From an uncultured Collinsella sp. (GTDB taxonomy: Bacteria; Actinomycetota; Coriobacteriia; Coriobacteriales; Coriobacteriaceae), in NCBI GenBank assembly GCA_900540835.1, contig UQHN01000004.1, positions 165-64,164 of the forward strand: a stretch of DNA of 64,000 bases. Reading direction: 5' to 3'. The notes below the pieces were generated by a model that was given only the letters and a program-made list of their open reading frames with translations, had not been told where the DNA came from and made no database searches. Made by a program: the position numbers and the translations under genes. Numbering within the stretch: the stretch's first letter is position 1; every line of letters begins with the position of its first letter. Positions 6,084 through 63,797 of this stretch are shown piece after piece.

Positions 6084-6187
6084 TCAAACAACCGTCTGCA
6101 ATTCCCGTTTGAAAAAGAGCTTTGCGTTCTGCCTATGGCCCTTACGGGTACAATATCCAAGATATTTTGACTGTTAGAAGGAGTCTC

Positions 6188-14027: not shown

Positions 14028-14039
14028 TTTTCCTTTCCT

Positions 14040-14260: not shown

Positions 14261-14482
14261 GGCGCCGCGCCGGTCATTTCCTTTTATCCGATTGTCATAT
14301 GCTCGTTGCCGAAACTTTTACTATGATAGTGGGCACTTGTGAACGTGTCAAAGCCAGCGCGGGCGGCATTGCGCCTCCTGCCTGCGTATTTGCGCCGATT
14401 GCTGCCGCAGGCGCCGTGTTTTGCCCGCTGCGCGAATGGCGGCGTAAACGGTTGCGATGAGAAACGGGAAGGGAAGGCTCGG

Positions 14483-15274: not shown

Positions 15275-15275
15275 C

Positions 15276-26274: not shown

Positions 26275-27494
26275 GGAAAGACCACGCCGCGCCCCGGGCT
26301 GCCGGGGGAATCCTGCGCGCCCGCACGCATGGGGGCAGCGCGCAATCGCTCGGCATCGCTTGCGAAGGGGGTGCCTCCGACCTCATTGACTTCTCGGTGA
26401 ACGTGAATCCGGCAGGCCCCTCGCCGCGCGCCGTCGCCGCAGCTTGCAAGGCGCTTTCTCGAATCGACGCCTACCCCGATAGGGAAAGCCTCGCCCTCGT
26501 TCGCGCGCTAGCGCGCGACCAGGGCATTCCCGAAGATACTATCGTCTGCGGCGCGGGCGCGTCCGACATCATCTGGCGGCTCGCAGCGGCGGTGCGCCCG
26601 AAACGCATCGTCGTGTGCGCGCCGACGTTCTCTGAATATGCTGAGGCGGCATCGTACTACGGCGCATGCGTGCAGGAGTTCCCGCTCTCTGAAGCGGACG
26701 ACTTCGACGTGCCCGCCTCCTTCGCCCGCGCGATCGAGGGGCCGGGAGACGTGGCGTACCTCTGCAATCCGAACAACCCGACGGGGCGCCTCGTCGACCC
26801 CAGCGTGATCGAGGCCGCGGCTTGCCGCTGCGAGCAGGTGGGCGCGCTGCTTGTCGTGGACGAGTGCTTCCTCGGATTTGCGCCCGACGCCCGCGAAAGG
26901 AGCGTGGCCGCACGCGCCGCGTGTTCGCGCCATGTGGCCGTGCTCTCCGCGTTCACCAAGCTCTACGGAATGGCGGGGTTGCGGTTGGGATATCTGATCA
27001 GCGGAAACGCCCAACTCATCGAGGGGATTCGCCGGGCGGGGCAGGCGTGGCCCGTCTCCTCGGTCGCCGAGGCCGCGGGCATCGCCGCCCTGGAAGACGT
27101 TGAATACGTCTCGCGCACGCGCGACGTATTGGCGGGCGAGCGAGCGTGGCTTTCCCACGAGCTCTCCTCGCTCGGGCTTTCCGTCGTGCCGTCGGATACG
27201 AACTTCCTTTTAGTCCGCACGCCGGCGAAAGACATCCCCGAGCGCCTGTATAATCAGGGTGTTTTGGTCCGCACGTGCGACTCGTTTTCGGTACTGTCCC
27301 GTTTCTGGTGCCGCGTCGCGGTGCGCACGCACAGGGAGAACGCCCGGCTTGCGATGGCGTTCAGCCGCGCGCTTCGGGCGGAAGGTGCATCGGGCGAAGG
27401 CGAACCCGACGAACGGGGCGGCGCTTCTTGCGGCGGCGCTATGGCGGGCGCGGATGGCCGAGGCTCGGCGAAGGAGGTCGATACCCGTGGGTAG
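26271..27494 (+). CDS. cobD: L-threonine-O-3-phosphate decarboxylase (class I/II aminotransferase fold)
   Basis: PLP aminotransferase-like, with IDFSVNVNPAGPSP and SAFTKLYGMAGLRLGY (lysine-PLP region); carries an acidic low-complexity C-tail. Confidence 0.8.
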   Translation: MRKDHAAPRAAGGILRARTHGGSAQSLGIACEGGASDLIDFSVNVNPAGPSPRAVAAACKALSRIDAYPDRESLALVRALARDQGIPEDTIVCGAGASDIIWRLAAAVRPKRIVVCAPTFSEYAEAASYYGACVQEFPLSEADDFDVPASFARAIEGPGDVAYLCNPNNPTGRLVDPSVIEAAACRCEQVGALLVVDECFLGFAPDARERSVAARAACSRHVAVLSAFTKLYGMAGLRLGYLISGNAQLIEGIRRAGQAWPVSSVAEAAGIAALEDVEYVSRTRDVLAGERAWLSHELSSLGLSVVPSDTNFLLVRTPAKDIPERLYNQGVLVRTCDSFSVLSRFWCRVAVRTHRENARLAMAFSRALRAEGASGEGEPDERGGASCGGAMAGADGRGSAKEVDTRG

Positions 27495-28986
27495 GGCCAA
27501 GCCCATCATGATCCAGGGCACCATGTCGAACGCGGGGAAGAGCCTGCTTGCGGCTGGGCTGTGCCGCGTACTTTCGCAGGACGGCTTGCGCGTGACTCCC
27601 TTCAAGAGCCAGAACATGGCACTCAACAGTGGTGTCACGGCCGACGGGCTCGAGATGGGGCGCGCCCAGATCATGCAGGCCGAGGCGTGCGGCATCGCGC
27701 CCGACGTGCGCATGAACCCCATCCTGCTCAAGCCCGAAAGCGGCCACCGAAGCCAGCTCATCGTGGCCGGCAAGGCGCAGGGAGCCTTCGCTGCGAGGGA
27801 CTACTTCGCGCGAAAGAAGGCGCTCATGCCGCAGATTCTGGAGGCGTTCGATTCGCTCGCGGAGGAAAACGACGTCATCGTCATCGAGGGCGCCGGCAGC
27901 CCCGCCGAAATCAACCTTGCCGAAAACGACATCGTCAACATGGGGCTCGCGCGCGCCGTGTCCTCCCCCGTGCTGCTTGCGGGCGACATCGACCCGGGCG
28001 GGGTATTTGCCCAGCTCTACGGCACGGTCGCGCTCCTTGCGCCCGAGGACCGCGCGCTTTTGCGGGGGCTTATGGTGAACAAGTTCCGCGGCGATGTGGA
28101 AATCCTGCGCCCGGGTTTGGCCCCGCTCGAGAAGATGTGCGGGGTTCCCGTCGTGGGGGTCGTGCCGTATCTTACGCTCGACCTGGACGACGAGGACTCG
28201 CTCGCGCCGCGCCTATCTGCCCGCGAGGCGCGCGGCGTCATCGACGTCGCCGTCGTGCGTCTTCCGCATCTGTCGAACTTCACCGACTTCGACCCGCTTT
28301 CGCGCGTGCCCGGCGTGGGCGTGCGCTACGTTTCCTCGACGACCGATCTGGGCCGACCCGACCTGGTGGTGCTTCCCGGCTCGAAGACCACGCTCGACGA
28401 CGCGCGCTGGCTTGCGGCTAGCGGCATCGGGGCCTGTGTACGCGCGCTTTCGGGCGCGGGCACGCCGGTGCTCGGCATATGCGGTGGCTACCAGCTTTTG
28501 GGAGACGAGCTTTCCGACCCGCACGGCAGGGAAGGCGCTGGCACCGCGCGCGGGCTCGGGCTCATCCCTGCAAGTACGGTGTTCAAGGAGGAAAAGCGCC
28601 TCGCCCAGTCGGCACTGCGCATCACGGGCGCCCAAGGCGCGTTCTCGGTGTGGAACGGCATGACGGCGCGCGGGTACGAGATTCACGACGGCGAAACGAC
28701 CGTCTCCTGCGCCCCTGTGGGCACGATTGGCGGCAAACCAGAAGGCGCGGCCTGCGGAAACGTGTTCGGAACCTATCTCCACGGCCTGTTCGACGAACCG
28801 GGGGTTGCGCTCGCCCTCGCGCGCTCGCTCGCGCGCATGCGCGGCCTGCCCGAGAGCGTCGTGGGTGCTGCGGGCGCGGCGTCCGCGGCCGATCACCGTG
28901 CGCGCGAGTTTGACCGCCTGGCCGACGTCGTGCGCGGGGCGCTCGACATGGAGTATGTCTACCGCATTATCGAGGAGGGCGTATGA
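27487..28986 (+). CDS. cobQ: Cobyric acid synthase
   Basis: IMIQGTMSNAGKSLLAAGLCRVL P-loop plus a C-terminal GATase domain. The start is GTG 27487 or ATG 27508. Confidence 0.85.
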   Translation: MGRAKPIMIQGTMSNAGKSLLAAGLCRVLSQDGLRVTPFKSQNMALNSGVTADGLEMGRAQIMQAEACGIAPDVRMNPILLKPESGHRSQLIVAGKAQGAFAARDYFARKKALMPQILEAFDSLAEENDVIVIEGAGSPAEINLAENDIVNMGLARAVSSPVLLAGDIDPGGVFAQLYGTVALLAPEDRALLRGLMVNKFRGDVEILRPGLAPLEKMCGVPVVGVVPYLTLDLDDEDSLAPRLSAREARGVIDVAVVRLPHLSNFTDFDPLSRVPGVGVRYVSSTTDLGRPDLVVLPGSKTTLDDARWLAASGIGACVRALSGAGTPVLGICGGYQLLGDELSDPHGREGAGTARGLGLIPASTVFKEEKRLAQSALRITGAQGAFSVWNGMTARGYEIHDGETTVSCAPVGTIGGKPEGAACGNVFGTYLHGLFDEPGVALALARSLARMRGLPESVVGAAGAASAADHRAREFDRLADVVRGALDMEYVYRIIEEGV

Positions 28987-38303: not shown

Positions 38304-38469
38304 TAAGGATACATGGTAGAGGCGCTCGTGCTGCAAAATTCATGAGCTGGTGACCTATTCTGCGTCCCAGGTCGGCTCATCTTCACCACCGGTTAATAAA
38401 AAAGAGGTACCGGTTGGTCCGGTACCTCTTTTGGTGCGTTTCGATTTGGCTGTAGCTTTTGCCGCTAGC

Positions 38470-39750
<1,281 letters not shown>

Positions 39751-47840: not shown

Positions 47841-47928
47841 AATACTTCCTTTTCAGCACAAAGCGGGCAGATTACTCTGCCCGCAAAAATTCAAACGTCT
47901 GTAACTGTACCCTATATCGGGCGTTTTA

Positions 47929-50900
47929 TCACGCTTCGCCCCAGAATCTATGCGTGTTGCGCAGGAGCTGTGCGGTTTTGCCCTCGGCGGCCGCAACGTC
48001 GGCCTCGTCAGCCTGCCAGGTCCAGTTGCCCGTGGCCACGCCCGGTACGTTCATGCGCGCGTCGTCGCCCAGCCCCAGGACATCCTGCAGCGGCATCATC
48101 ACCAGGGGAGCGTCGCTTGCCAGCGCATCGCTCATCAGCTTGGCCGCCACCTCAACACCGCTCGGTTCGTCGCCGCCCGCAAAGGAACGCGTACACCAAC
48201 CCGCGAGCGTCGACGTGTCGTGCGTCGAGGTATACAGGATCTTTCCTGGCGTAGGGTGCACGCCGCAACGGACGTCGTAGTCGCCAAACTCCAGCACGTC
48301 CATGCCGGGGAAGCCGCAGGTCGAGGCCATGGCGCGAACGCCGGGCGTCAAATAGCCCAGGTCCTCGGCAATAAAGTTGAGCGGACCCAGCTCGTCATAG
48401 GCGGTCTGAAACAGGTCCTTGCCCGGTCCCGCCAGCCAGCGACCTTCGGCGCAAGCCTTGCCAGCGGGGATACTGAAGTAGCTGTGGAAGCCCAAGAAGT
48501 GATCCAGACGCACGCGGTCGTAAAGTGAGAACGCACGACGTAGGCGATCCATCCACCAGCTATAGCCGTTCTGCTTCATGTGGTCCCAGCGGAACGTCGG
48601 GTTGCCCCACACCTGGCCCTCGGGCGCAAAGTTATCGGGCGGCGCACCGGAGATCTCGATTGCCTTGCCGGTATCGGATAGCCAGAAAATCTCGGGTTCG
48701 CTCCACGCATCTGCCGAATCGTCGGACACGTACATAGGGATATCGCCGATGACCTCGATGCCCTTCTTGTGCGCGTAGTTCATGAGCTCGCACCAGGCTA
48801 GGTCAAAGCGGTACTGCATGTACGCCTGAAGCTCGGCCTCGTCGTGGAAGCGCTTGTCGTCAATCAGGTGCTCGTTGTAGCGCGCAACATCTGCCGGCCA
48901 ATCGTGGCGCGACTCGCCCTCAAAGTATTTCTTGACGGCCATGTAGACGCAGTACTTCTCGAGCCAATCGGCATTGCGATGTTTAAACGCGGTGTACAGC
49001 GGATCGGCATCCTCGCCGCCACGGGCCTTCCAAGTTTCAAAGTCGGCCGCCAGCTCCTCGTGGCTTTCGGGCAGCAGGTCGATATTACCTGCAAAGGCCG
49101 AAGGACCGGCGTAAGGGGAGCGGAAGAAGTCCGTCGGGTTGACAGGCAGGACCTGCCAGTAGCGCATGCCCATAGCGGCCAGATGGTCGATAAAGCGACG
49201 CGTGGGTGCGCCGATCGTACCGGGCTTGCCGTCATCGGTCGGTACCGAGGTGATATGGCACACAACGCCCGCGCCGTGATCGAGCGGCTCCTGCAGGCGC
49301 TGCTCGGCATGGTGATAGATGATCGACGAGCCCAGCGGATACAAATCGAGCGTGACCGTGCCGTTGTGGATCTCGCACTCGTGACCGCTGATCACGTCAC
49401 TCGCGCATTCGTCGAGCGCCGGAATCGTCACGCGGTGCGAATTGCGCAGACTACGGTTAATGATAACCGTCGCGGACTCGCCATCCCTGCCCGTGCGGTT
49501 GTATGCCAGCACCTCGTCGTTGAGCGCGAAGGCCTTGATCTCGCCGTCGATCATAAACGGCAGTGCGCGGCGTACGGCGGAGGCGTTTTTGACAATAGCC
49601 AGCGTGTCGAAGTCGTGCAGTTGGTCCTTGGTCGGCATGGTGCGGCGGTTGCCCGGATCGGTAAGGCCCTCCAGGCCGTATTCGTCGCCGTAGTAGATCG
49701 AAGGCACGCCGGGGAAGGTCATCTGCATGAGCGTTGCAAGCCAAAAACGGCTCTTGGCCAGGCCCATCGCGTTCTCGTCCAGACGCCACTTGCTGCGCTC
49801 GCACTCGGGCAGCTGCGACTCGTCGGGGCCGCCGCCGAGCACCGAGATGATACGCGGGCGGTCGTGGCTCGAAAGCAGGTTGAGCGCGCAAGACAGGGCC
49901 TCACGCGGATAGTTCTCGCGTAGGGTCTCGATATCCTCGGCAGCTTGGTAGGCGTTTTTGTAGCCCATCAAAAAGCCGATGACCATGTCGCGGAAGGGGT
50001 AATCCATGGCAGAGTCCAGCTCGGAGCCCTGCAGGTAGCGGCGCAGATGGCCGTAGCTAATCTTGTTGGAGGCGTCCTCCCAGACTTCGCCGAGCAACAG
50101 TGCGTCAGGCTTTTCGGCAAGCACGGCCTTCTTGATCTCGGCCAGGAAGTCGTCGGAAAGCTCGTCAGCGACGTCCAGGCGCCAACCATGGGCACCGGCG
50201 CGCAGCCATTTGCGGATCACGCCGTCCTTACCTAGGAGCTTCTCGCGTACTAGCTCGGACTTCTCGTTGATGGCCGGCATGTTGCCCACACCCCACCAGC
50301 AGTCGTACGAGCCGTCCTCGTGGAAGGTAAACGCATCGCGCCACGGCGAGTCCTCGCTCTGCCACGCGCCCACGCCGGGGTAGTTGCCGTAGCGGTTGAA
50401 ATAGATCGAGTCGTCGCCCGTGTGGTTGAAGACGCCGTCCAGAATAACGGAGATGCCCAGCTTCTCGGCTGCCTGGCACAGCTCGGTAAAGTCCTGCTCG
50501 GTGCCCAGGATCGGGTCGATCTTGGTGTAGTCGGCCGTGTCGTAACGGTGGTTGCTCGCGGCTTCAAAGATGGGGTTGAGGTAGATGGCCGTAAAGCCCA
50601 ACTCGGCGATGCGGGGCAGGTCTTCCTGGATGCCCTTGAGCGAGCCGCCGTAGAAGTCCCAGGTCTTGATGGAGCCGTCCTCGGCGCGCTCGTATACGGG
50701 CGGCTCGTTCCAGTCCTCGACCATCCGGCGCTGAATACCCTTGCGCGGTTTTTCGAGTTCGGCCATTGTACGCTCGCGCCAATGCTCGTCACGGGCATAG
50801 CGATCGGGGAAGATCTGGTACACCATGCCGCGCTCGTACCAGGTGGGGCGGTTCTCGCGGTGCTTGTAGACGGTAATCTGGAAGGACGGAACCTCGGAGT

Positions 50901-51225
50901 AGTCGTAGGTCACACCCTCGCCACCGGTGCGACCCTGCGGTGCACCCAAGCGGACCTCGGGCTGGCCCTCGATATTGCAGATAAAGCTGTACCAGATAAG
51001 ACAGGGCTCGGTGCACTCAAGCTCTGCAGTAAATATGCCGTCGCCCTCGTGCGTCATGGGATACAGAGACTCACCGATTTCATCGACCCAGGTGCGCAGC
51101 GTAAGCGTTGCCTGGTTGGGATCGGCATCCTCCAAAATCACCGAGAGTGCAACGGAAGTTCCAGTGGTCACAGCGCCAAACGGAGTGCGAAACTGCGGCA
51201 GGCGGCTGTTGTGAATCAATCTCAT
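47929..51225 (-). CDS. malQ: Bifunctional GH13 alpha-amylase-family enzyme (neopullulanase/amylopullulanase-like) fused to GH77 4-alpha-glucanotransferase (MalQ)
   Basis: The N-terminal ~600 aa carry GH13 regions (GFTAIYLNPIF, DGVFNHTG, GWRLDVADE, EVWE, SHD). The C-terminal ~480 aa carry GH77 hallmarks (YWQVLPVNPTD, SPYAGPSAFAGN, GDIPMYVSDDSADAW, VWGNP, RLDHFLGF). Confidence 0.8.
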   Translation of the reverse strand: MRLIHNSRLPQFRTPFGAVTTGTSVALSVILEDADPNQATLTLRTWVDEIGESLYPMTHEGDGIFTAELECTEPCLIWYSFICNIEGQPEVRLGAPQGRTGGEGVTYDYSEVPSFQITVYKHRENRPTWYERGMVYQIFPDRYARDEHWRERTMAELEKPRKGIQRRMVEDWNEPPVYERAEDGSIKTWDFYGGSLKGIQEDLPRIAELGFTAIYLNPIFEAASNHRYDTADYTKIDPILGTEQDFTELCQAAEKLGISVILDGVFNHTGDDSIYFNRYGNYPGVGAWQSEDSPWRDAFTFHEDGSYDCWWGVGNMPAINEKSELVREKLLGKDGVIRKWLRAGAHGWRLDVADELSDDFLAEIKKAVLAEKPDALLLGEVWEDASNKISYGHLRRYLQGSELDSAMDYPFRDMVIGFLMGYKNAYQAAEDIETLRENYPREALSCALNLLSSHDRPRIISVLGGGPDESQLPECERSKWRLDENAMGLAKSRFWLATLMQMTFPGVPSIYYGDEYGLEGLTDPGNRRTMPTKDQLHDFDTLAIVKNASAVRRALPFMIDGEIKAFALNDEVLAYNRTGRDGESATVIINRSLRNSHRVTIPALDECASDVISGHECEIHNGTVTLDLYPLGSSIIYHHAEQRLQEPLDHGAGVVCHITSVPTDDGKPGTIGAPTRRFIDHLAAMGMRYWQVLPVNPTDFFRSPYAGPSAFAGNIDLLPESHEELAADFETWKARGGEDADPLYTAFKHRNADWLEKYCVYMAVKKYFEGESRHDWPADVARYNEHLIDDKRFHDEAELQAYMQYRFDLAWCELMNYAHKKGIEVIGDIPMYVSDDSADAWSEPEIFWLSDTGKAIEISGAPPDNFAPEGQVWGNPTFRWDHMKQNGYSWWMDRLRRAFSLYDRVRLDHFLGFHSYFSIPAGKACAEGRWLAGPGKDLFQTAYDELGPLNFIAEDLGYLTPGVRAMASTCGFPGMDVLEFGDYDVRCGVHPTPGKILYTSTHDTSTLAGWCTRSFAGGDEPSGVEVAAKLMSDALASDAPLVMMPLQDVLGLGDDARMNVPGVATGNWTWQADEADVAAAEGKTAQLLRNTHRFWGEA

Positions 51226-51654: not shown

Positions 51655-53943
51655 TTAGCGGCGCTTGCGGGTGGCAGTTGCCTTGCGGACGGAGGTCTTC
51701 TTGGTCGGAGCCTTTTCCTCGGCCGGAGTGGCGGGGGAGACCGGAGTCTCCTTGGCAGGCTCGGGCTTAGCCTCTGCCTTCGGTGCGGCCTTGACCCCAG
51801 CGGCCTTCGGCGTCGGCTTGGCCTTTACCTCGGCCTTGGGCTCCTCTTTGGCAGCAGCGGGCTTAGCCTCTGCCTTGGGAGTTGCGGCCTTTGCCGTGGA
51901 CTTCTTGGCCGTCGTCGTTGCGCGCTTGCGCGTGGTGGTCTTGGCGGTCGGCTTGGCCTCGACAGCTGCCTCGGCCTTGGGCTCGGCGGCTGTCTCCTCG
52001 ACCTTGACGGCGGGCTTTGCGGCAGCCTTCAGAGCGGCCTTTGTCACAGTAGCCTTGGCGACCGTCGACTTCGTTGCCGTGGTCTTCTTGGCAGCTGTTG
52101 CCTTCTTGGCGGTCGTGGTCGTCTTCTTGGCAGCGGTCTTTGCCGGAGCCTTGGCGGACGGCTTGACCTCTGCGACCTCGGCCTTTACCTCGGCGGCGGC
52201 CTCGACCTCCGCGGCCTTCTTGGCAGCGGCGGTCGTGCGCTTGCGCGTCGTCGTTGCCTTGGCAGCGGTCATGGTCGTCGTAGTCTTCTTGGCCGTCGTC
52301 TTACGAGTCGCGGTCTTCTTTGCCGCAGGCTTCGTAGTGGGCTTCACCTCAGGCTCGGCCTTTGCGGGCTCAGCCTCAACCGGCTTCTCTTCGGCCTTGG
52401 GCTCCTCAGCGGCCACCGGCTCAGCAACAGCCTCAGGCTCGTCGACAACAGCCGCCGGCCGCTCAATCTCCGGATGCATAAAGAAGTACAGGTCCAGATA
52501 CTTGTCAGCCGAGCGCGTCCAGCTATAGTCCTGGCTCATGGCTTGCGTGACCAGCTGGTTCCAGGCATCGCGGTTGTCCCAGAACAGGCGTGCCGCACGG
52601 AACACGGCGTCGCCCATCTCGTCGCCGTTAAAGTTACTAAACGAGAAGCCCGTGCCCTCGCCGGTAAACTCGTTATACGGAATCACAGTGTCCTTCAGAC
52701 CACCGGTCTCGCGCACGATGGGCAGGGTACCGTAGCGCATGGCGATGATCTGCGACAGGCCGCAGGGCTCAAACTTCGAAGGCATCAGGAACATGTCGGC
52801 TGCGGCATACATGCGCTGCGACAGCGCCGGATCGAACTCGATGCGCGCGGCCATGGTGCCGGGGTATTTGTCCTGGAAGTAGCGCAGTCCGTCCTCGTAG
52901 TCGCGGTCGCCGGTGCCCAGAACGGCCACCTGAACGCCGCCGGCTAGGATGCGATCGAGCGCGTACATGACCAGGTCCATACCCTTTTGGCGCGTCAGGC
53001 GCGTGACCATCACCATAAGCGGACGGTCGTCGCGAACCTCGAGTCCCAGCTCTTCCTGCAGCTTGGCCTTGCACACGGCCTTGCCAGAACGGTCCTCCAC
53101 GGTGTAGTTGGCGGCAATGCGCTTGTCGGTCGCCGGGTCAAAGCCTGCCACATCAATGCCATTAAGGATGCCCTGCAGCGCGTACGAACGCTCGCGCAGC
53201 ACGCCATCCAGGCCCTCGCCAAACTCGGGCGTCTGGATCTCGTTGGCATAGGTGGGGCTCACCGTGGTGATGGCATCGGCATAGCGCAGGGCACCCAGCA
53301 TGTAGTTGATGCTGCAGGCGTCGCAACGCAGCTGCGAGGCGGCCGCCGGAATGTGCGCCACGCCCAGGATGTCCTCCATCACGGTGTCGCTAAACTGGCC
53401 TTGGAACGCCACGTTGTGGATCGAGAATACGGTCTTGACGCGGTCGTACAGTGGCAGGCCCTGGTAGAACTCGCGCAAGAACACGGGCGCCAGTGCCGTT
53501 TGCCAGTCGTTGCAGTGCAGTATGTCGCACTCAAAGCCGGCCGGCAGGTGCTGCAGACTCTCGGTGATGGCCTTGGAGAAGAACGCAAAGCGCTCGCCGT
53601 CGTCAAAGAAGCCGTACGGATAGTCGCGCGCAAAGTAGCGCTCGTTGTCGATGAACATATAGGTGACGCCGTCGTGCTCGAGCTTCTCGAGTCCGCAGTA
53701 CTCGTTGCGCCAGCCCAGGCTCACGTAAAAGTCGGAGAAGTGCTCCATCTGTGCCTTGTACTCGTCCTTGATGGTGGCGTACTTGGGCACCATCACGATA
53801 ACCTCGGCGCCGGCGCGCACGAGCGCCGCAGGCAGCGAGCCCGCCACGTCGCCCAGGCCGCCGGTCTTCACAAACGGCGCGCACTCGGCCGAGGCAAACA
53901 CGATCTGCATCTTTTTGCTGGAATCTGCCATATTGTCTCCCAT
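51655..53943 (-). CDS. glgA: Glycogen synthase (GT5) with a ~280 aa Lys/Ala/Thr-rich C-terminal tail
   Basis: N-terminal MQIVFASAECAPFVKTGGLGDV. Likely start is ATG 53931, which has an RBS gggaga. Catalytic domain is ~480 aa, then a PEAVAEP...AKKTATRKTTAKK...KAAPKAEAKPE low-complexity basic tail. Confidence 0.85.
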   Translation of the reverse strand: MGDNMADSSKKMQIVFASAECAPFVKTGGLGDVAGSLPAALVRAGAEVIVMVPKYATIKDEYKAQMEHFSDFYVSLGWRNEYCGLEKLEHDGVTYMFIDNERYFARDYPYGFFDDGERFAFFSKAITESLQHLPAGFECDILHCNDWQTALAPVFLREFYQGLPLYDRVKTVFSIHNVAFQGQFSDTVMEDILGVAHIPAAASQLRCDACSINYMLGALRYADAITTVSPTYANEIQTPEFGEGLDGVLRERSYALQGILNGIDVAGFDPATDKRIAANYTVEDRSGKAVCKAKLQEELGLEVRDDRPLMVMVTRLTRQKGMDLVMYALDRILAGGVQVAVLGTGDRDYEDGLRYFQDKYPGTMAARIEFDPALSQRMYAAADMFLMPSKFEPCGLSQIIAMRYGTLPIVRETGGLKDTVIPYNEFTGEGTGFSFSNFNGDEMGDAVFRAARLFWDNRDAWNQLVTQAMSQDYSWTRSADKYLDLYFFMHPEIERPAAVVDEPEAVAEPVAAEEPKAEEKPVEAEPAKAEPEVKPTTKPAAKKTATRKTTAKKTTTTMTAAKATTTRKRTTAAAKKAAEVEAAAEVKAEVAEVKPSAKAPAKTAAKKTTTTAKKATAAKKTTATKSTVAKATVTKAALKAAAKPAVKVEETAAEPKAEAAVEAKPTAKTTTRKRATTTAKKSTAKAATPKAEAKPAAAKEEPKAEVKAKPTPKAAGVKAAPKAEAKPEPAKETPVSPATPAEEKAPTKKTSVRKATATRKRR

Positions 53944-54021: not shown

Positions 54022-55149
54022 TTAACGTACGATGGTGGTGTCGGAAGTTAACGGAGCCTTGCCCAGCACCAGGATGTTCTCGGGCGTGCCGCGAAGCTCG
54101 GTGTTGGTGGGAACCACGTTGTTCTTGTCCAGGATGGCGTTCTCGACGCGGGCGCCGCTCTTGATGATGCAGCTCTGGTTGATGATCGAGTTGGTGACCG
54201 AAGCGCCTTCCTCGACCACAACGCCGCGCGACAGGATCGAGTTGCGCACGGTGCCCTTGATGATGCAGCCGGCCGAGATGATCGAGTTGCACGCGTGGCT
54301 GCCGGTCGCATAGCGCGAAGGCGGCACGTCGTGAGCCTTGGTCAGGATCGGACGCTCGGGGTCAAAGAGCTGGTCGGCCACGGTCTGGTCGAGCAGGTCC
54401 ATGCTGCGGCGATACAGCGACTTCTCGCTAAACACGCCCACGACCTCGCCCTTGTACTCGTAGCTGCACACGTCGATGTTGCCAAAGTCGCCCTGGAGTG
54501 CCTCGAGCAGGTCCAGATAGTCGGCGGCCTGGTAGTGGTCGATGATCTCGAGCAGCGTCTCGCGGTTGACGATGCAGCAGTCCATGGAGGCGTTGTCGCC
54601 GTACACGACGCCGGCGCTCACGCCCGTCAGGCGGCCGTTCTCGTTAATCTCGAGCTTGGTCTCGTCATCGACGTTGCGCGTGGCCTTGCAGTACACCACG
54701 GTCATCTGGGCGCCAGAGTTCTCGTGCGCCTCGATGATGGTGTTGAGGTCCATGTTAAAGATGATGTTGGTGCCCATCATCACAACATAGGGCTTGTCCG
54801 AGCGCTGGAACAGCGTCTTGTTGGAGATGATGTCGCGCAGCAAGAAGCGCATACCGCCCTTGGTGGTGCCATACGCGTTGCCGGGGACCATGAACAGGCC
54901 GCCCTTCTTGCGGTCCAGGCCCCAGTCCTTGCCCGAGCCCACGTGATCGATCAGCGAGCGGTAGTTGCCCGGCATGACGACGCCGACGGTCTTAATGCCG
55001 GCATTCATCATGTTGGACAGCGGGAAGTCGATCAGGCGGTAGCGGCCCAAAAACGGAACGGACGCGATGGGGCGGTCCTTGAGCAGCACGCTGCCGTAGG
55101 TCGAAGAGTAGTTAGCGGTGATATAACCGATGGCCTTGCGATTGATCAT
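54022..55149 (-). CDS. glgD: Glucose-1-phosphate adenylyltransferase regulatory subunit GlgD
   Basis: NTP-transferase fold plus left-handed beta-helix, lacking the GlgC catalytic GG-G-RL motif. Start at ATG 55149 (RBS aaggggga); the ORF track opens at 55188. Confidence 0.8.
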   Translation of the reverse strand: MINRKAIGYITANYSSTYGSVLLKDRPIASVPFLGRYRLIDFPLSNMMNAGIKTVGVVMPGNYRSLIDHVGSGKDWGLDRKKGGLFMVPGNAYGTTKGGMRFLLRDIISNKTLFQRSDKPYVVMMGTNIIFNMDLNTIIEAHENSGAQMTVVYCKATRNVDDETKLEINENGRLTGVSAGVVYGDNASMDCCIVNRETLLEIIDHYQAADYLDLLEALQGDFGNIDVCSYEYKGEVVGVFSEKSLYRRSMDLLDQTVADQLFDPERPILTKAHDVPPSRYATGSHACNSIISAGCIIKGTVRNSILSRGVVVEEGASVTNSIINQSCIIKSGARVENAILDKNNVVPTNTELRGTPENILVLGKAPLTSDTTIVR

Positions 55150-55153
55150 CGGA

Positions 55154-56302
55154 TCATTCCCCCTTCCCGATAACGACGTCATTTCCAACGACGGCCGTAT
55201 CCTTGGTGGTATCGACAGAGCCGAGCTTCACGCCCTCTTCGACCGTGGAGTTCTCGCCCAAAATAGCGCGGCAGATGTGCGCGCCGCTCTTAACGTGCGC
55301 ACCCGGCAGCAGCACGGAGTCCTCGACCACGGCACGCTCCTCGATGATGACATCAGTCGAAAGAATCGAGTGGCGAGCGGTGCCGTAGATCTTGCAGCCG
55401 TTGGAGACCAGGCAGTCGTCCAGGCGGCCGTCCGGGCCAATATAGTGCGGCGGTCGCGTGGTGATGTTGGACATGATGGGGAAGTGCTTGTCGAACAGAT
55501 CGAACTCGGGGTTGTTGCCCAGCAGGTCCATCGAGGTCTCGTGGAAGCTGGCGATGGTGCCGACGTCCTTCCAAAAGCCGTGGAACTCGTAGCTGTACAG
55601 ACGCTTGTTCTCGCCGAGCAGCTTGGGGATGATGTCCTTGCCAAAGTCGTGGCTCGAACGCTGGTCCAGAGCGTCCTCCTCGAGCGCCTCGATCAGCACG
55701 TCGGCCGAGAAGATGTAGATGCCCATGGACGCGAGGTTCGAATCGGGCTTCTCGGGCTTCTCGGTAAACTTGGTAATGCGGCCATCCTCGGGGTCGGTGG
55801 TCAGGATGCCAAAGCGGCTGGCCTCCTCCCACGGCACGGGCATAACGCTCACCGTGAGGTCGGCGTTGTTCTCAATGTGCGTCTTGAGCATCTTGCGGTA
55901 GTCCATGCGATACAGGTGATCGCCCGAAAGAATCAGGACGTACTTGGGGTCGTTGGCCTTGATGTAGTCGAGGTTCTGCGTAATGGCGTCGGCCGTGCCC
56001 GCATACCAGGCGCCACCGGTCTGCGTCTCGTACGGCGGCAGGATCGACACGCCGCCGTCGCGGCTGTCCAGATCCCACGCCTCGCCGGAGCCCACGTAGG
56101 CATGCAGCAGGTAGGGACGGTACTGCGTCAGAACGCCCACCGTGTCGATGCCCGAGTTGGAGCAGTTGGACAGCGAAAAGTCGATAATGCGGAACTTGCC
56201 ACCAAAGCTAACCGCCGGCTTGGCGATCTTTTGGGTGAGTGCCCCCAATCGGCTGCCCTGTCCTCCTGCGAGGAGCATCGCGATGCATTCTTTCTTACTC
56301 AT
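55154..56302 (-). CDS. glgC: Glucose-1-phosphate adenylyltransferase
   Basis: [23 protein letters not shown] and the C-terminal LbH domain; RBS aaggag. Confidence 0.95.
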
Positions 56303-56408: not shown

Positions 56409-58835
56409 TTACGCGTGCCAGATCTCGTCGCGGTACTCGCGAATGGTGCGGTCGCTCGAGAACCAGCCGGAGGAGGCGGTGTTGAGCAAGGCCTTGCGGT
56501 TCCAGGTTTCCTGGTCGCCGTAGCTGCCGGTGAGCTTTTCCCATGCATCCACGTAGCTGCGGAAGTCGGCCATGACTAGGTCGGGGTCGTTGTTGTTCAT
56601 GAGCTCGTTGTAGATGCTCTCGAAGTTGCCCGAAAGACCCGCGAACGTGTTGTCCTTGAGCTCGTCCATCACGCGGCCCAGACGCTCGCGGTCGCCGTTG
56701 AGGGTATCCCACGCAAAGTAGCTGTTGGATGCCCAGAGCTGCTCGACCTCGGGGGCGGTCAGGCCAAAGATGGCCTCGTTCTCGCGACCGGCCAGGTCGG
56801 CGATCTCGATGTTGGCGCCGTCGAGGGTGCCCAGCGTAATGGCGCCGTTCATCATGAGCTTCATGTTAGACGTGCCCGAGGCCTCCTTGCCGGCCGTGGA
56901 GATCTGCTCCGAGATCTCGGCGGCGGGGTAGATGAGCTGGGCGTTGCTCACGCGGAAGTTGGGGATAAAGCAGACCTTCATGACCTCATTGACGCGGGCA
57001 TCGTTGTTGATGACGTCGGCAACGGAGTTAATGAGGCGGATGGTCTCCTTGGCAAAGGTGTAGCTCGAGGCAGCCTTGCCACTAAAGATGAAGGTCGTCG
57101 GCGTCACGTGGAAGTTGGGATCGGCGATGCGACGGTTGTAGATGTCCATCACCTTCATGATATTCATGAGCTGGCGCTTATAGGCGTGGAAGCGCTTTAC
57201 CTGGACATCGAAGACGGTGTTGGGGTCGATGACCAGACCGGTCTCGGCCTTGACGTAGGCGGCCAGACGCTCCTTGTTGGCGCGCTTGGAGGCACCAACG
57301 GCCTTCAGGAACTCGGTGTCGTTCTGGAACTCTTTGAGCTTCTCCAGCTCAAAGGCGTCCTTGAGCCAGCCATCGCCAATGGCCTCGGTCACGAGCTTGG
57401 CATAGGTGGGGTTGGCCTCGGCAAAGAAGCGACGGTGCGAGATGCCGTTGGTCTTGTTGTTGAACTTCTCGGGCGTGAGGGCATAGAAGTCTTTGAGCAC
57501 GATGTTCTTGATGATGTCGGAATGGATCTTGGCCACGCCGTTGACGCTGTGGCTGCAGATCACAGACAGGTTGGCCATGCGAATCTCGCCGTCCCACAGG
57601 ATGGCGGTCTGGCGCAGACGCTCCTGCCAGCCCTCCTTCGTGGTGTCGAACGACTCGTGCCAACGACGGCTGATCTCGTCGATGATCTGGTACACGCGGG
57701 GGAGGAGCTTGGAGAACGTGCCGATGGGCCACTTCTCCAGAGCCTCGGGCAGGATGGTGTGGTTGGTGTAGCTCACGACCTGCGTCACGATGTTCCAGGC
57801 GTCGTCCCACTCGAGCTTCTTCTCGTCGATGAGGATGCGCATGAGCTCGGGGCCGCACATGGCGGGGTGCGTGTCGTTGGTGTGGATGGCCACAAACTGC
57901 GGCAGCAGCTCCCAGTTCTCGCCGTGCTCCTTCTCAAAGGTGTCGAGCAGGCTGTAGATGCCGGCCGAGACAAACAGGTACTCCTGCTTCAGGCGCAGCA
58001 GACGGCCGTGCTCGCCGGCGTCGTTGGGGTAGAGGATGGCGCTGATGGCCTCGGCCTCGGCGCGCTCGGCGTCGGCCAGGGCGTAGTCGCCGCGGTTGAA
58101 GGCCTCCAGATCGAAGTGCTCCTCGACCGGCTCGGCAGCCCAGACGCGCAGCTTGTTGACTGTCTCGCCGGCATAGCCCACCACGGGGATGTCATAGGGG
58201 ACGGCCAGGATGTCCTGCGTGTCCACCGTGCGGTAGAACGTGCGGCCGTTCTCCTCAAAGCCCTCGACGCGGCCACCAAACTTGATGGTCACGGCCTTAT
58301 CCTGACGACGGACCTCCCAGGGATAGCCGTGGGTGAGCCACTCGTCGGTGGCCTCGACCTGGCTGCCGTTGACGATCTCCTGCTTAAACAGACCGTAGCG
58401 GTAACGCATGCCGTTGCCGTAGCCGGCAATGCCCTCGGCTGCCATCGAATCCAGGAAGCACGCGGCCAGACGGCCCAGGCCACCGTTGCCCAGAGCCGGA
58501 TCGGGCTCCTGGTTCTCGATGACGGACAGGTCAAAGCCCATGTCGTCGAGCGCCTCGGCGACCATGTCGCGCACGCCAAAGTTGAGCAGGTAGTTGTCGA
58601 GCAGGCGGCCGATCAAAAACTCGATCGAGAAGTAGTACACGCGCTTTTTGCCCTCGGCGGTGACGCGGGCGTCACTCTTGGTGGCAACGGTGCGCGCCTT
58701 CTCGGCCACGAGCTTGGCCAGGGCGTTAAAGCGGTCGAGGTCGCTGGCGGCCTCGACGCTCTTGCCGCTGATGCTCATGACGGCATCGCGATAGAGCTCG
58801 GTAAACTCCTGCTTGTTGTCAAAGATCTTATTCAT
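56409..58835 (-). CDS. glgP: Glycogen / alpha-glucan phosphorylase
   Basis: 808 aa with PLP-lysine motif EASGTSNMKLMMNGA. Confidence 0.95.
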   Translation of the reverse strand: MNKIFDNKQEFTELYRDAVMSISGKSVEAASDLDRFNALAKLVAEKARTVATKSDARVTAEGKKRVYYFSIEFLIGRLLDNYLLNFGVRDMVAEALDDMGFDLSVIENQEPDPALGNGGLGRLAACFLDSMAAEGIAGYGNGMRYRYGLFKQEIVNGSQVEATDEWLTHGYPWEVRRQDKAVTIKFGGRVEGFEENGRTFYRTVDTQDILAVPYDIPVVGYAGETVNKLRVWAAEPVEEHFDLEAFNRGDYALADAERAEAEAISAILYPNDAGEHGRLLRLKQEYLFVSAGIYSLLDTFEKEHGENWELLPQFVAIHTNDTHPAMCGPELMRILIDEKKLEWDDAWNIVTQVVSYTNHTILPEALEKWPIGTFSKLLPRVYQIIDEISRRWHESFDTTKEGWQERLRQTAILWDGEIRMANLSVICSHSVNGVAKIHSDIIKNIVLKDFYALTPEKFNNKTNGISHRRFFAEANPTYAKLVTEAIGDGWLKDAFELEKLKEFQNDTEFLKAVGASKRANKERLAAYVKAETGLVIDPNTVFDVQVKRFHAYKRQLMNIMKVMDIYNRRIADPNFHVTPTTFIFSGKAASSYTFAKETIRLINSVADVINNDARVNEVMKVCFIPNFRVSNAQLIYPAAEISEQISTAGKEASGTSNMKLMMNGAITLGTLDGANIEIADLAGRENEAIFGLTAPEVEQLWASNSYFAWDTLNGDRERLGRVMDELKDNTFAGLSGNFESIYNELMNNNDPDLVMADFRSYVDAWEKLTGSYGDQETWNRKALLNTASSGWFSSDRTIREYRDEIWHA

Positions 58836-58929: not shown

Positions 58930-61236
58930 TTACGCTTTCTTAGCAGGAGCCTTAACGGCAGCTGCCTTAGCCTTGGGAGCGGCCTTTTTGGTGGCTGCCT
59001 TTTTGGCCGTGGTGGACTTGGCCGAAGCCTTGGCAGTGGGCTTGGTAGCCTTCGCCTTGGCCGGCGCCTTCTTAGCGGCCGCGGCCTTGGGCTTCACCGA
59101 GGACGTGCGCTTGCGCGTAGTCTTCTTGGGAGCCTCGACCACGGGCGGCTTGTAGCTGCTGGGACCGCGACGCTTAAGCACCACGCCTGCCAGGCCGGGA
59201 ACCTTAATCTCAATGGAATCCATCTGCCCGTTCCAGGGATAGGGCTCGCTCGAGCAGGTGTAGGGCTCCTCGCCGGCATAGCCACTGCCGCCAAACTCGG
59301 GACGGTCGGAGTCGAAGATGACCTCCCAGTCACCCTCGCGCGGCACGCCCACGCGGAAGCTCTCATAGCTCGCCGGATCAAAGTTGATCAGGATCACCAG
59401 ATCGTCGTCGATGTCCTCGCCCTGGCGCACAAAGCTCACGATGGACTGCTTGGAGTTATCCGCATCGATCCAGGTAAAGCCGTCGTCGGTGTAGCCACGC
59501 TCGTACAGGGCGGGCTCGGCGGTGTACAGGTGGTTGAGCGCCTTGATAAACGCCTGATGATGACGGTGGGTCTCGTACTCCTCGGTCAGGAACCACTGGA
59601 TGGACTCGTAGTAGCGCCACTCAATAAACTGGCCGATCTCGTTGCCCATAAAGTTGAGCTTGGCACCGGGGTGCGTCATCTGGTAGAAGGCCAGCGTGCG
59701 CAGGCCGGCAAACTGGCGCCACCAGTCGCCCGGCATACGGCCGATCAGCGAGCATTTACCGTGGACGACCTCGTCGTGGCTCAGCGGACAGATAAAGTTC
59801 TCGGTAAAGGCGTACATGATGGAGAACGTGAGCAGGCCGTGGTTGCCGGGGCGCCACGGAAAATCGGTCTGCATGTAGTGCAGGGTGTCGTTCATCCAGC
59901 CCATGTCCCACTTGTAGTGGAACCCCAGGCCGCCGTCCTGCGGCGGGTAGGTCACGAGCGGCCACGCGGTGGACTCCTCGGCCATCATCATCACGTCGGG
60001 GTAGTGTGCCTCCACGGCGCAGTTGACCTGACGGATAAACGCGCTGGCGTCCAGGTCCTCCTCGGTACCGTACTTGTTGAACTTCTTTTGGCCCGGATCG
60101 TCGATGCCAAAGTTGAGGTACAGCATGCTGGACACGCCGTCCATGCGGATGCCGTCCACATGGAAGTTCTCGAGCCAGTACAGCACGTTAGAGACCAAGA
60201 AGGAGCGGACCTCGCCACGGGCGAAGTCAAACTTATGCGTGCCCCAGTTGGGGTGAATCTCGTGTTCAAACAGCATGTGGCCGTTAAAGGTGGCAAGGCC
60301 GTGGGAGTCGGCACAAAAACCGCCGGGCACCCAGTCCATGATCACGCCGATGCCCGCCTCGTGGCACGCATCGATAAAGTGCATGAGCTGCTGCGGGTTG
60401 CCGTAGCGCGACGTGGCGGCATAGTAGCCGGTCGTCTGGTAGCCCCAGGAGCCATCGAAGGGATGCTCCATAAGCGGCATAACCTCAATGTGCGTATAGC
60501 CCATGTCGCGCACGTAGTCCACGAGCTCCACCGACAGGTCGTCGTAGGTATAGAACTCGCCGCGCTGCGCGGGGAAGGGATCCATGGGGCCGGGGTAGTT
60601 GCCGTACTCGTCGGGCTCGCCCTGCGGCGCGTCGCCGTGGCGCTTCCACGATCCAATATGCACCTCGTAGATGTTAAGGGGCTGCGACATGTGGTTATGG
60701 CTGGCGCGGCGCTGGAGCCATGCGGCGTCGTTCCACTTATAGCCGTCGAGGGTCCACAGCACGCTCGCCGTACCCGGAGGGCACTCGGCCTTAAAGGCAT
60801 ACGGATCGGCCTTATAGAGCTTTTCGCCCTCGTTGGTCTCGATGAGATACTTATAGAGCTGACCTTGTTCTGCGCCAGGAATAAAGCCTTCCCAGATAGC
60901 GCTCGTATGCACGGGCACCAGCGGGTTGGCTTCTTCATTCCAGTCGTTAAATTCGCCAATGACATGCACGCTCTTTACATCGGGCGCCCAAACGCAAAAG
61001 CGCCAGCCGCGCGTACGGTTCTGCGTGTCGGGGTGCGCGCCCATCTTTTCCCAGCTGCGCTCCCACGTGCCGATGCCAAATAGATAGACATCGTCCTTGG
61101 TGAGCTCCGGTGCGTGCGGGGCGGCTTTACGGGTTGCGGGCTTTTTAGCCGTTGGCTTTAGCTTTGTATCGCTCACGTTTGATCCCATCATGACGCGGCA
61201 GCGTGTTGCCTTGGTGACTAGATGCGAAAGGTCCAA
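58930..61236 (-). CDS. glgB: 1,4-alpha-glucan branching enzyme with a ~90 aa Lys/Ala-rich C-terminal tail
   Basis: GH13 branching-enzyme core (CBM48 N-domain, GIGVIMDWVPGGF, DGIRMDGV), then the tail PKKTTRKRTSSVKPKAAAAKKAPAKAKATKPTAKASAKSTTAKKAATKKAAPKAKAAAVKAPAKKA. Start is 61236 or the internal ATG at 61191. Confidence 0.9.
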   Translation of the reverse strand: MDLSHLVTKATRCRVMMGSNVSDTKLKPTAKKPATRKAAPHAPELTKDDVYLFGIGTWERSWEKMGAHPDTQNRTRGWRFCVWAPDVKSVHVIGEFNDWNEEANPLVPVHTSAIWEGFIPGAEQGQLYKYLIETNEGEKLYKADPYAFKAECPPGTASVLWTLDGYKWNDAAWLQRRASHNHMSQPLNIYEVHIGSWKRHGDAPQGEPDEYGNYPGPMDPFPAQRGEFYTYDDLSVELVDYVRDMGYTHIEVMPLMEHPFDGSWGYQTTGYYAATSRYGNPQQLMHFIDACHEAGIGVIMDWVPGGFCADSHGLATFNGHMLFEHEIHPNWGTHKFDFARGEVRSFLVSNVLYWLENFHVDGIRMDGVSSMLYLNFGIDDPGQKKFNKYGTEEDLDASAFIRQVNCAVEAHYPDVMMMAEESTAWPLVTYPPQDGGLGFHYKWDMGWMNDTLHYMQTDFPWRPGNHGLLTFSIMYAFTENFICPLSHDEVVHGKCSLIGRMPGDWWRQFAGLRTLAFYQMTHPGAKLNFMGNEIGQFIEWRYYESIQWFLTEEYETHRHHQAFIKALNHLYTAEPALYERGYTDDGFTWIDADNSKQSIVSFVRQGEDIDDDLVILINFDPASYESFRVGVPREGDWEVIFDSDRPEFGGSGYAGEEPYTCSSEPYPWNGQMDSIEIKVPGLAGVVLKRRGPSSYKPPVVEAPKKTTRKRTSSVKPKAAAAKKAPAKAKATKPTAKASAKSTTAKKAATKKAAPKAKAAAVKAPAKKA

Positions 61237-62900: not shown

Positions 62901-62929
62901 TTGCACGTCGAGTCAACTTCCCCTATAGT
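62901..62929 (+). promoter_or_regulatory. Candidate promoter for tRNA-Ala
   Basis: TTGCAC, 17-nt spacer, TATAGT, ending 14 nt before the tRNA 5' end. Confidence 0.5.
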
Positions 62930-62942
62930 ATCTCCTTGTCAC

Positions 62943-63018
62943 GGGGGCGTAGCTCAGCTGGGAGAGCGCTTGACTGGCAGTCAAGAGGTCAGGGGTTCGA
63001 TCCCCCTCGTCTCCACCA
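62943..63018 (+). tRNA. tRNA-Ala: tRNA-Ala (anticodon GGC)
   Basis: GGGGGCGTAGCTCAGCTGGGAGAGCG...GGTTCGATCCCC, anticodon loop CTGGCAG, the G3:U70 Ala identity pair, and CCA encoded. Confidence 0.9.
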
Positions 63019-63028
63019 TCGTGAATGC

Positions 63029-63058
63029 AAAGGCCTTCGGAATTCCGAAGGCTTTTTT
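63029..63058 (+). terminator. Rho-independent terminator after tRNA-Ala
   Basis: AAGGCCTTCGGAATTCCGAAGGCTT followed by TTTTT. Confidence 0.75.
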
Positions 63059-63797
63059 AATGCCAAAACACCTCGCACCACAAACCCCCGCACACTCCAA
63101 CAAAAAGTTGCACAATTTATTTCCCATGTCTGTACATAGTTTGTTAGAAAAACGTGATTATCAGTGCAGCTCGCCGTTCCATTTGTGCTTCAGGAACGCC
63201 CCTAATCACCGTTAGCATCCCAATAACCTGCATCAACGTGAACAACTTAGGCAAACAAGCCCCTCAAGCACGGATTCGTCGCATATGTTGTCCAACGCAA
63301 CCCAAATCAGTTTCACTATCAGCTTGTGCTAGGATACTTAACGTTACATGAGTTCAACTACGCTCACGGCTTCAGCAAGCCACAAAGCGCAGGGTCGATC
63401 AGCATCCGGCCGTAACGGCGGTGCCAGAAACACCACGAGCTCCAATATCGAGTGCCATGTGCATTTTTTCACTTGCTTTTGCGACTATTTATAAGTTCGC
63501 ATTAGGCAGTGCTTTAAGTTGTTGCGGCAAACCATGGCAGTCCTTCAGCTGTTTGCGTGCGGTCCAGTTTTGTGCCCGCTTGACTGGTTCGCACGCAGCC
63601 AGCTGGGGACGCGGTCATTTTGCGATACACGTCCGCGTCTCTAGCAACTGCATATGTACATACCGTTCACGGTGGGGCAGAGCCACGTGCTTGTCTGACT
63701 GGGCTCAGGGTTTGAATATGGAGCGCCTTCGCGCACAAGCGCCCTGGCGAAGCCATACCCAAACCCCGTGAGCCACACGTAAGACAGCAAGGGGGTG

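Follow-up and report, generated by a model that had tools for sequence, protein, structure and literature searches.

The window analysed here, a stretch of 64,000 nucleotides from an uncultured Collinsella sp. (contig UQHN01000004.1 of assembly GCA_900540835.1), contains a glycogen operon, glgB-glgP-glgC-glgD-glgA-(GH13+GH77), in which the branching enzyme GlgB and the glycogen synthase GlgA carry lysine-rich extensions beyond their folded domains. Judged from their sequences, the extensions at both ends of GlgB and at the C-terminus of GlgA are translated, lysine-selected regions of the histone-H1/PAKKA compositional type. A functional, charge-based role for them is likely. By analogy with the lysine-rich tails of other bacterial proteins, this role may be that of a non-specific polyanion tether holding GlgB and GlgA to the nucleoid or to RNA, the reading that we favour and regard as a credible possibility while stopping short of calling it probable. 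The genes and extensions concerned are the following.

58930..61191, minus strand: glgB, 1,4-alpha-glucan branching enzyme, 753 amino acids from the ATG at 61191
58930-58932, minus strand: glgB stop codon
58933..59163, minus strand: GlgB C-terminal polycationic tail, residues 677-753, PSSYKPPVVEAPKKTTRKRTSSVKPK...KAPAKKA
61099..61191, minus strand: GlgB N-terminal basic extension, residues 1-31, net charge +5
61117-61167, minus strand: GlgB N-terminal Lys-rich patch, TKLKPTAKKPATRKAAP
51655..53943, minus strand: glgA, ADP-glucose-type glycogen synthase, open reading frame (ORF) of 762 amino acids
51658..52473, minus strand: GlgA C-terminal tail, residues 491-762 (272 residues), a K/A/T/E/P low-complexity block polyampholyte
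52354..52473, minus strand: acidic proximal linker of the GlgA tail, residues 491-530, PEIERPAAVVDEPEAVAEPVAAEEPKAEEKPVEAEPAKAE, net charge -9
51658..51702, minus strand: conserved basic C-terminus of GlgA, KKTSVRKATATRKRR, net charge +8

Composition and predicted structure of the extensions

The GlgB tail (PSSYKPPVVEAPKKTTRKRTSSVKPKAAAAKKAPAKAKATKPTAKASAKSTTAKKAATKKAAPKAKAAAVKAPAKKA) comprises the 77 residues past the last strand of the Alpha-amylase_C domain. It is a plain polycation, containing 22 K, 2 R, 24 A, 9 P and 1 E (29% K, 31% A, 12% P) and no D, F, G, H, I, L, M, N, Q, W or C, with a net charge of approximately +24 against approximately -49 for the folded core. The C-terminus is one exact PAKKA, and the words AKKAP and KKAAPK also occur in the tail. 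An AlphaFold2 model based on a 50-sequence alignment folds the core confidently (predicted template modelling score, pTM, 0.76), and gives residues 677-753 a predicted local distance difference test score (pLDDT) of 31-41 and residues 1-18 one of 33-43, in both cases with no secondary structure. On this model the GlgB extensions are predicted to be intrinsically disordered, a property that the C-terminal tail would share with the H1-like class. The initial annotation had recognised the Lys/Ala-rich tail of GlgB and its basic N-terminal patch and quoted both sequences exactly; the interval it assigned to the tail, 58930-59215, does contain it but is wider, including the stop codon on one side and the final ~17 residues of the beta domain on the other.

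The same annotation had described the GlgA tail as being of the same kind. It is indeed polycationic (53 K, 10 R, 76 A, 45 T, 32 E and 27 P; net charge approximately +30), but it is not a pure polycation, being instead a block polyampholyte with an acidic linker. Beyond the linker, Lys/Thr/Ala blocks with charges of +4 to +13 alternate with short acidic spacers. The terminus KKTSVRKATATRKRR is invariant across the C. aerofaciens complex, and related R/K-rich ends are found in four divergent Collinsella lineages (L083-L086); tail-less relatives have a short basic end too (NKKRNR, NKRRD). Acidic Pro/Glu/Ala linkers likewise open the GlgA tails of L083-L086, as well as that of an independent case, P0251.

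Lysine enrichment, specificity and translation

The remaining proteins of the window (17,246 residues), which served as the composition background, contain 3.5% lysine and 6.5% arginine. Against this background the chance probability of at least 22 lysines in 77 residues is 1.6e-14, and that of at least 53 in 272 residues is 4e-24. The K:R ratio is 22:2 in the GlgB tail and 53:10 in the GlgA tail, compared with 0.54:1 in the other window proteins. This excess points to selection for lysine as such, beyond mere positive charge, as is the case for H1-like DNA-binding tails.

A six-frame scan of the whole window found Lys-rich segments only at the N- and C-termini of GlgB and in GlgA, apart from one further weak match at 38400-38528, outside any called gene. 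The same scan applied to nine additional loci, taken from relatives as well as from unrelated bacteria (L081-L089; ~150 kb of DNA beyond the window) matched only GlgB and GlgA. Such tails are absent from the window proteins that deal with nucleic acids, namely PriA, a CCA/poly(A) polymerase, GluRS, RsmB and a TetR regulator. They are also absent, by both the six-frame scan and Pfam, from GlgP, GlgC, GlgD and the GH13+GH77 fusion, which bears out the earlier statement that the first three of these lack them.

The codons of the tails have a GC content at third positions (GC3) of 0.77-0.78, like that of the genome, and prefer AAG for lysine. Together with the strain indels, all of which are in-frame, these features indicate that the reading frame assigned to the tails is correct. 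A sequencing or frame artefact, or read-through, is ruled out by GC3, codon use, the in-frame indels and the presence of the tails in more than 100 independent assemblies. A shift in alanine codons was also observed: GCT and GCA are far commoner in the tails than in the cores, GCT making up 9 of the 24 alanine codons of the GlgB tail and 1 of the 39 of the GlgB core; for GlgA the counts are 20 of 76 (tail) and 1 of 50 (core). The lysine codons of the tails are AAG throughout.

Conservation and selection

Close relatives were represented by 80 genomes of the C. aerofaciens complex, and both tails are present in all 80. The GlgB tail is 75-90 residues long in these genomes, with 74 distinct sequences and net charges of +20 to +29; the GlgA tail is ~243-316 residues long, with 62 distinct sequences and net charges mostly of +22 to +38. 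No truncating mutation was found in the 80 genomes. The initial annotation had considered an artefact unlikely and had named absence from conspecific strains as an observation that would refute its own reading; the tails occur in every conspecific and congeneric genome examined.

Within this set the ratio of nonsynonymous to synonymous substitution rates (dN/dS) of GlgB is 0.27 in the tail against 0.024 in the core. Indels affect 45 of 102 alignment columns in the tail and none of 645 in the core, and every length difference is in-frame. Lysine columns of the GlgB tail are 96.5% conserved, A, T, S and P interchange freely, and charge density is held at 0.25-0.32 per residue. The tails thus appear to be under purifying selection on charge, and the pattern suggests that what is maintained is lysine and charge density, not sequence.

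Relation between the two tails

Comparison of the GlgB and GlgA tail-coding DNA by blastn gave nothing beyond exact words of 15 nt or fewer, ruling out the recent duplication of one tail-coding segment for which the initial annotation had proposed a check. Expansion of a tandem repeat was rejected as the source of the tails, there being no tandem DNA repeat in the glgB tail and only weak, degenerate repeats of 18 and 24 nt in the glgA tail. At the protein level the two tails have 11 words of five residues in common, against 2.9 expected from shuffled versions (p ~0.001). TTRKRT and AAAKKA are among the shared words, and nearly every arginine in both tails lies in a T-T-R-K-R-T-like context. 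From these comparisons the tails appear to follow a similar 'grammar' with no common origin. The earlier idea of one shared tag on two enzymes is not supported, given that the tails lack DNA homology, differ in length, architecture and age, and occur separately.

Distribution and age of the tails

All 119 complete GlgB homologues (~67-98% identity) have a basic K/A/T/S/P tail, of 21-153 residues, whose sequence cannot be aligned between lineages. The N-terminal K/A/P-rich extensions of GlgB are variable in other Collinsella lineages and absent from the Atopobiaceae outgroups. GlgA is extended in L083-L086, where it is 629-852 residues long; the lengths of GlgP, GlgC, GlgD and the fusion are unchanged in these lineages. 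In the lineage L082, GlgB is tailed and GlgA is tail-less at 488 residues. The closest outgroups that share this operon order are an Atopobiaceae metagenome-assembled genome (L089) and a Fannyhessea vaginae-type contig (L090), in which GlgB has Lys-rich tails of 37 and ~70 residues, respectively, and GlgA is tail-less at 498-502 residues. Since GlgB is tailed in the two Atopobiaceae loci examined, its tail predates the Coriobacteriaceae/Atopobiaceae split. The GlgA tail is a later Collinsella addition, missing in one lineage (L082).

Regarding L082 (10001-12259 and 17148-18614), the N-terminal region of its GlgB is identical to that of the window over the 70 residues compared, the C-terminal domain and tail of GlgB are divergent, and GlgA is 64% identical to that of the window. 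Either recombination of the operon or chimerism of the metagenome assembly would account for this locus.

Among 145 GlgA cluster representatives with complete C-termini, low-complexity tails were found only in the Collinsella clusters and in P0251, P0257 and P0364; extensions elsewhere consist of fused domains, in most cases GH13. P0251 and P0257 (L087, 7652-9526; L088, 208-2079) are Firmicutes-like GlgA proteins of unrelated lineages with ~47% identity to the Collinsella core and tails of ~150 residues, one composed of EEPAP-type acidic repeats followed by KK-rich blocks and the other of KAPAKK repeats. The GlgB encoded beside the tailed GlgA in L087 has only a short basic end, LPKPRKKKEAKELEKP, and no long tail. 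GlgA tails of the Collinsella design were thus gained independently at least twice outside Collinsella (P0251 and P0257).

Directly after the beta domain of GlgB lies a motif of the form (L/P)PKP(R/K)(K/R/T)K that recurs in L087, L089 and many Collinsella homologues, with LPKPRKKK, LPKPRTKK and VPPKPKKK as examples from distant GlgBs. Its recurrence suggests that the long GlgB tails may have grown out of an ancient basic peptide at the C-terminus.

Comparison with known systems

Several bacterial proteins are known to use lysine-rich tails to position storage granules. PhaM uses its C-terminal PAKKA lysines to attach polyhydroxybutyrate (PHB) granules, together with the synthase PhaC, to the nucleoid, while the histone-like C-terminal domains of PhaF and AlgP space and segregate polyhydroxyalkanoate (PHA) and polyphosphate (polyP) granules (PMC9049629, PMC13052382). 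Like PhaM from Cupriavidus necator, which works with the polymerising PhaC at granule initiation, and PhaF from Pseudomonas putida, the tailed glycogen enzymes combine a disordered Lys/Ala/Pro C-terminal region, with a PAKKA in GlgB, and a portion by which a carbon-storage polymer is held. In GlgB and GlgA the polymer-holding modules would be the CBM48/GH13 and GT5 domains, respectively, as indicated by family membership. The glycogen enzymes differ from PhaM and PhaF in the polymer concerned, in that the tail is fused to the biosynthetic enzymes with no separate adaptor or phasin, in the lack of sequence homology, in having degenerate repeats, and in the acidic blocks of the GlgA tail.

AlgP from Pseudomonas aeruginosa also has a long Lys/Ala/Pro low-complexity C-terminal domain, which is required for the even spacing of polyP granules (PMC13052382). 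Its repeat number varies from clone to clone, resembling the length polymorphism of the tails described here. By contrast with GlgB and GlgA, AlgP has neither an enzyme domain nor enzymatic activity; it is a dedicated protein whose repeats are regular, and its granule is itself a polyanion.

Within the same phylum, TopA, Ku and HupB/HupS have disordered Lys/Ala/Pro C-terminal tails, consisting in Ku of PAKKA repeats. These actinobacterial tails, among them the Lys repeats of TopA and Ku, bind DNA without specificity and increase affinity or processivity (PMC5714199, PMC3553676, PMC11229371). Unlike these proteins, which already act on DNA, GlgA and GlgB have no known nucleic-acid substrate. 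A further parallel comes from plant starch-granule initiation (the N-terminal extension of SS4, PTST2 and MFP1), in which a GT5 synthase is placed by non-catalytic extensions or partners that set where and how many granules start (PMC10801857). The plant system differs in relying on coiled coils and a thylakoid anchor in a eukaryotic plastid, and its sequences are unrelated.

The Lys/Ala/Pro composition and high net charge of the H1-like class are found in both tails, with the abundant T and E of the GlgA tail in addition. Because their repeats are irregular and they match no family, we describe the tails by analogy as possibly working like the H1-like/PAKKA class, and do not file them as members of it.

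No prior report of polycationic tails on glycogen enzymes was found in the literature. A full-text literature search returned nothing on lysine-rich or disordered tails of GlgA or GlgB, nor on Collinsella glycogen enzymes, and such tails go unmentioned in the first 300,000 of the ~445,000 characters of a 2024 review of alpha-glucan enzymes (PMC11046441).

Proposed function of the tails

If the tails act as tethers, they would bind a cellular polyanion electrostatically, the nucleoid or nascent RNA being the likeliest and polyphosphate possible. The catalytic and CBM48 domains would grip the growing glucan while the tail grips the polyanion. Glycogen particles would then be initiated and retained at many dispersed sites and shared by daughter cells, with no polar mass. 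GlgA and GlgB, acting jointly on the same chain ends, would be concentrated at one place, and the enzymes that make ADP-glucose (GlgC and GlgD) or degrade the polymer (GlgP and the GH13/GH77 enzyme) would remain untethered. Co-localisation on a polyanionic scaffold, as suggested by the initial annotation, is plausible by analogy. A wider and more doubtful proposal, which we put forward only tentatively, is that Coriobacteriales organise glycogen synthesis spatially via H1-like tails on the branching enzyme, and in Collinsella on the synthase too, with the tails tying nascent particles to the nucleoid or driving a co-condensate of Lys-rich enzyme and polyanion.

A number of observations weigh against the polyanion tether. 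Its mechanism is drawn from composition and analogy, and the specificity of the tails is judged from roughly 100 neighbouring genes. The GlgA tail is Thr-rich with acidic blocks, unlike classical H1-like tails, neither tail consists of tandem PAKKA repeats, and no Pfam family matched either of them at E <= 10. Low-complexity tails are rarely modelled in curated families, so the missing Pfam match weighs little. GlgB alone is tailed in L082, L089 and L090, and GlgA alone in the Firmicutes-like operon L087. The tails are thus evolutionarily uncoupled, and a joint targeting role cannot be obligatory. In addition, across GlgB homologues (P0001-P0120) and loci L081-L089, tail charge is anticorrelated with core charge (Spearman -0.62, n = 49 distinct tails, uncorrected for phylogeny). 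The outgroups follow the trend, with a core of -12 and a tail of +4, a core of -25 and a tail of +12, and cores of -34 to -51 with tails of +18 to +28. Whole GlgB remains moderately negative (mean -16), while GlgA, with a core of approximately -23, has a total charge of +8. The anticorrelation fits charge compensation or tail-core interaction equally well.

One rival reading is an electrostatic assembly of enzyme with enzyme, without nucleic acid, in which the cationic tails would bind the acidic cores and the GlgA linker in cis or in trans, and fuzzy GlgA-GlgB complexes or coacervates would couple elongation to branching on the particle surface. In favour of such an assembly are the strongly basic tails (GlgB +25, GlgA +31) and acidic cores (GlgB ~-49, GlgA ~-23), the pairing of more acidic GlgB cores with more basic tails, outgroups included, the conserved acidic Pro/Glu/Ala linker that opens the GlgA tails, and the words common to both tails beyond composition. 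In plants, starch synthases associate with branching enzymes in functional complexes. However, tails occur singly in several lineages, the charge correlation is uncorrected for phylogeny, the AlphaFold2 model shows no conformation with the tail docked on the GlgB core, and charge pairing between proteins has no obvious need for so strict a choice of Lys over Arg, leading us to regard assembly as unlikely. The tails could also have a generic, partner-less role in balancing charge or isoelectric point, in solubility, or as an entropic bristle or spacer, possibly stopping the enzymes from becoming trapped in, or shut out of, the dense glycogen phase. Free variation of sequence at a maintained composition and charge density, the high polymorphism of tail length, the anticorrelation of tail and core charge, and the moderately negative total charge of GlgB are all as such a role would predict. 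Yet other very acidic enzymes (GlgP and the GH13+GH77 fusion) are tail-less, arginine or changes to the core could balance charge whereas lysine is kept at 96.5%, and the GlgA tail overshoots neutrality to a total of +8. We judge a generic role to be about as improbable as assembly, with charge compensation of very acidic cores nevertheless a live rival to the polyanion tether.

Both membrane or polyP binding and neutral drift are less likely than assembly or charge balance. Polybasic stretches bind anionic lipids and polyP, and tethering to the anionic phospholipids of the cytoplasmic membrane or to polyphosphate granules would place glycogen synthesis at the cell periphery or beside polyP. 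In line with this, the H1-like AlgP is located on polyP granules (PMC13052382) and the Lys-rich HBHA is linked to mycobacterial lipid inclusions (PMC6176652). The tails, however, have no hydrophobic or aromatic residues or amphipathic helix to aid membrane insertion, and nothing in their sequence separates polyP from nucleic acid; another anionic surface is accordingly a quite improbable target. The window also encodes an MprF-like protein (lysyl-phosphatidylglycerol synthase transmembrane region; 6122-7492, plus strand) that, if active, would reduce the negative charge of the membrane, which bears slightly on the membrane alternative. A functionless low-complexity expansion, arising by replication slippage in GC-rich DNA and tolerated at protein termini as neutral or nearly neutral, would explain the fast change in length with its many in-frame indels, the short degenerate 18- and 24-nt repeats in the glgA tail, and the lack of a GlgA tail in L082, where the operon is not obviously lost. 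It is very unlikely given that dN/dS in the tail is 0.27 and not ~1, that lysine columns are almost invariant, and that no truncating mutation occurs among the 80 genomes. The retention of the GlgB tail in Coriobacteriaceae and Atopobiaceae alike, the independent gain of similar GlgA tails elsewhere, the absence of a tandem repeat from the glgB tail, and the enrichment of lysine despite the arginine preference of other window proteins also argue against it.

Two other roles were considered and set aside. Secretion or surface display, as for an HBHA-like adhesin, is unlikely from the N-termini, as that of GlgA runs straight into the catalytic domain and that of GlgB is hydrophilic. Direct binding of glucan by the tails is unlikely as they have no aromatic residues and glycogen is uncharged.

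In E. coli, where glycogen is untethered, it forms a condensate at the old pole, shifting the nucleoid and rendering division asymmetric (PMC11042326), a cost that a tether would avoid. The placement, sizing and inheritance of bacterial glycogen have barely been studied, and glycogen goes unmentioned in a 2025 review on how bacterial organelles are positioned (PMC13052382). A conserved, selected tail on exactly the two polymer-building enzymes offers a concrete handle on glycogen organisation in Collinsella, a human gut genus. Were the tether real, glycogen would become the third bacterial storage polymer with such positioning, after PHB/PHA and polyP, and the first case in which the tether is built into the polymerising enzymes. 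Acetylation of tail lysines or phosphorylation of tail threonines could, on the same spatial reading, couple tethering to carbon status. With these cases, H1-like tails, known from DNA enzymes and granule adaptors, would also include tails of core metabolic enzymes. For enzyme engineering, native removable charged tails may alter solubility, substrate access and product structure.

The glg operon

The six genes of the operon are co-oriented on the minus strand and lie within the right-hand 16 kb of the window. The glgB-P-C-D-A order identifies the operon as the GlgD-containing type. The genes other than glgB and glgA, none of which encodes a tail, and the element directly past the operon are as follows.

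56409..58835, minus strand: glgP, glycogen phosphorylase (Pfam Phosphorylase, residues 97-807 of 808)
55154-56302, minus strand: glgC, ADP-glucose pyrophosphorylase subunit (Pfam NTP_transferase and hexapeptide domains)
54022-55188, minus strand: glgD, ADP-glucose pyrophosphorylase subunit (Pfam NTP_transferase and hexapeptide domains)
47929..51225, minus strand: fusion of a GH13 amylase/pullulanase-like domain and a GH77 4-alpha-glucanotransferase (MalQ-like), 1098 residues (Pfam)
47863..47884, minus strand: terminator-like hairpin with a 9-bp stem and T-rich tail, by consensus match only

The catalytic architecture of both tailed enzymes is fully conserved relative to canonical GlgB (GH13_9) and GlgA (GT5). 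GlgB has the CBM48 domain, GH13 catalytic barrel and C-terminal all-beta domain of a GH13 branching enzyme, with Pfam matches to CBM48 (PF02922, 6e-23), Alpha-amylase (PF00128) and Alpha-amylase_C (PF02806, 2e-18), the last ending at approximately residue 674. It is 95-99% identical to GlgB of the Collinsella aerofaciens group, to which the window is assigned on this basis. Translation of glgB probably starts at the ATG at 61191, with which database gene calls (753-758 residues) agree; a GTG five codons 3' of this ATG is a possible alternative, and the open frame reaches 5' to a TTG at 61236. GlgA matches Glyco_transf_5 (PF08323, 1e-81) and Glycos_transf_1 (PF00534) over residues 13-446 and contains the KTGGL motif, as a GT5 glycogen synthase should. 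Its database gene call is 758 residues long and starts MADSS, and the homologue P0121 is 100% identical over 758 residues. GlgP is of steady length across all lineages (805-817 residues), as are GlgC and GlgD across lineages. The GH13+GH77 fusion and its position as the last gene are conserved across all Coriobacteriales loci seen.

Elsewhere in the window

A cobalamin biosynthesis cluster lies on the plus strand at 14339-28986. It encodes tetrapyrrole methylases, CbiD, CbiG, CobB/CobQ amidotransferases, a CobT-like DBI_PRT protein, CobU/CobC, CobD/CbiB and an aminotransferase, and CbiK is encoded on the minus strand at 13098-14111. The GC content of the cluster is 0.67-0.69, compared with 0.57-0.62 in most of the remaining window, which suggests horizontal acquisition. 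Two tRNA genes are present on the plus strand, tRNA-Glu(CTC) at 5962-6038 and tRNA-Ala(GGC) at 62943-63018. An ORF at 62901-63215 was rejected as a gene, being merely the translated tRNA-Ala region.

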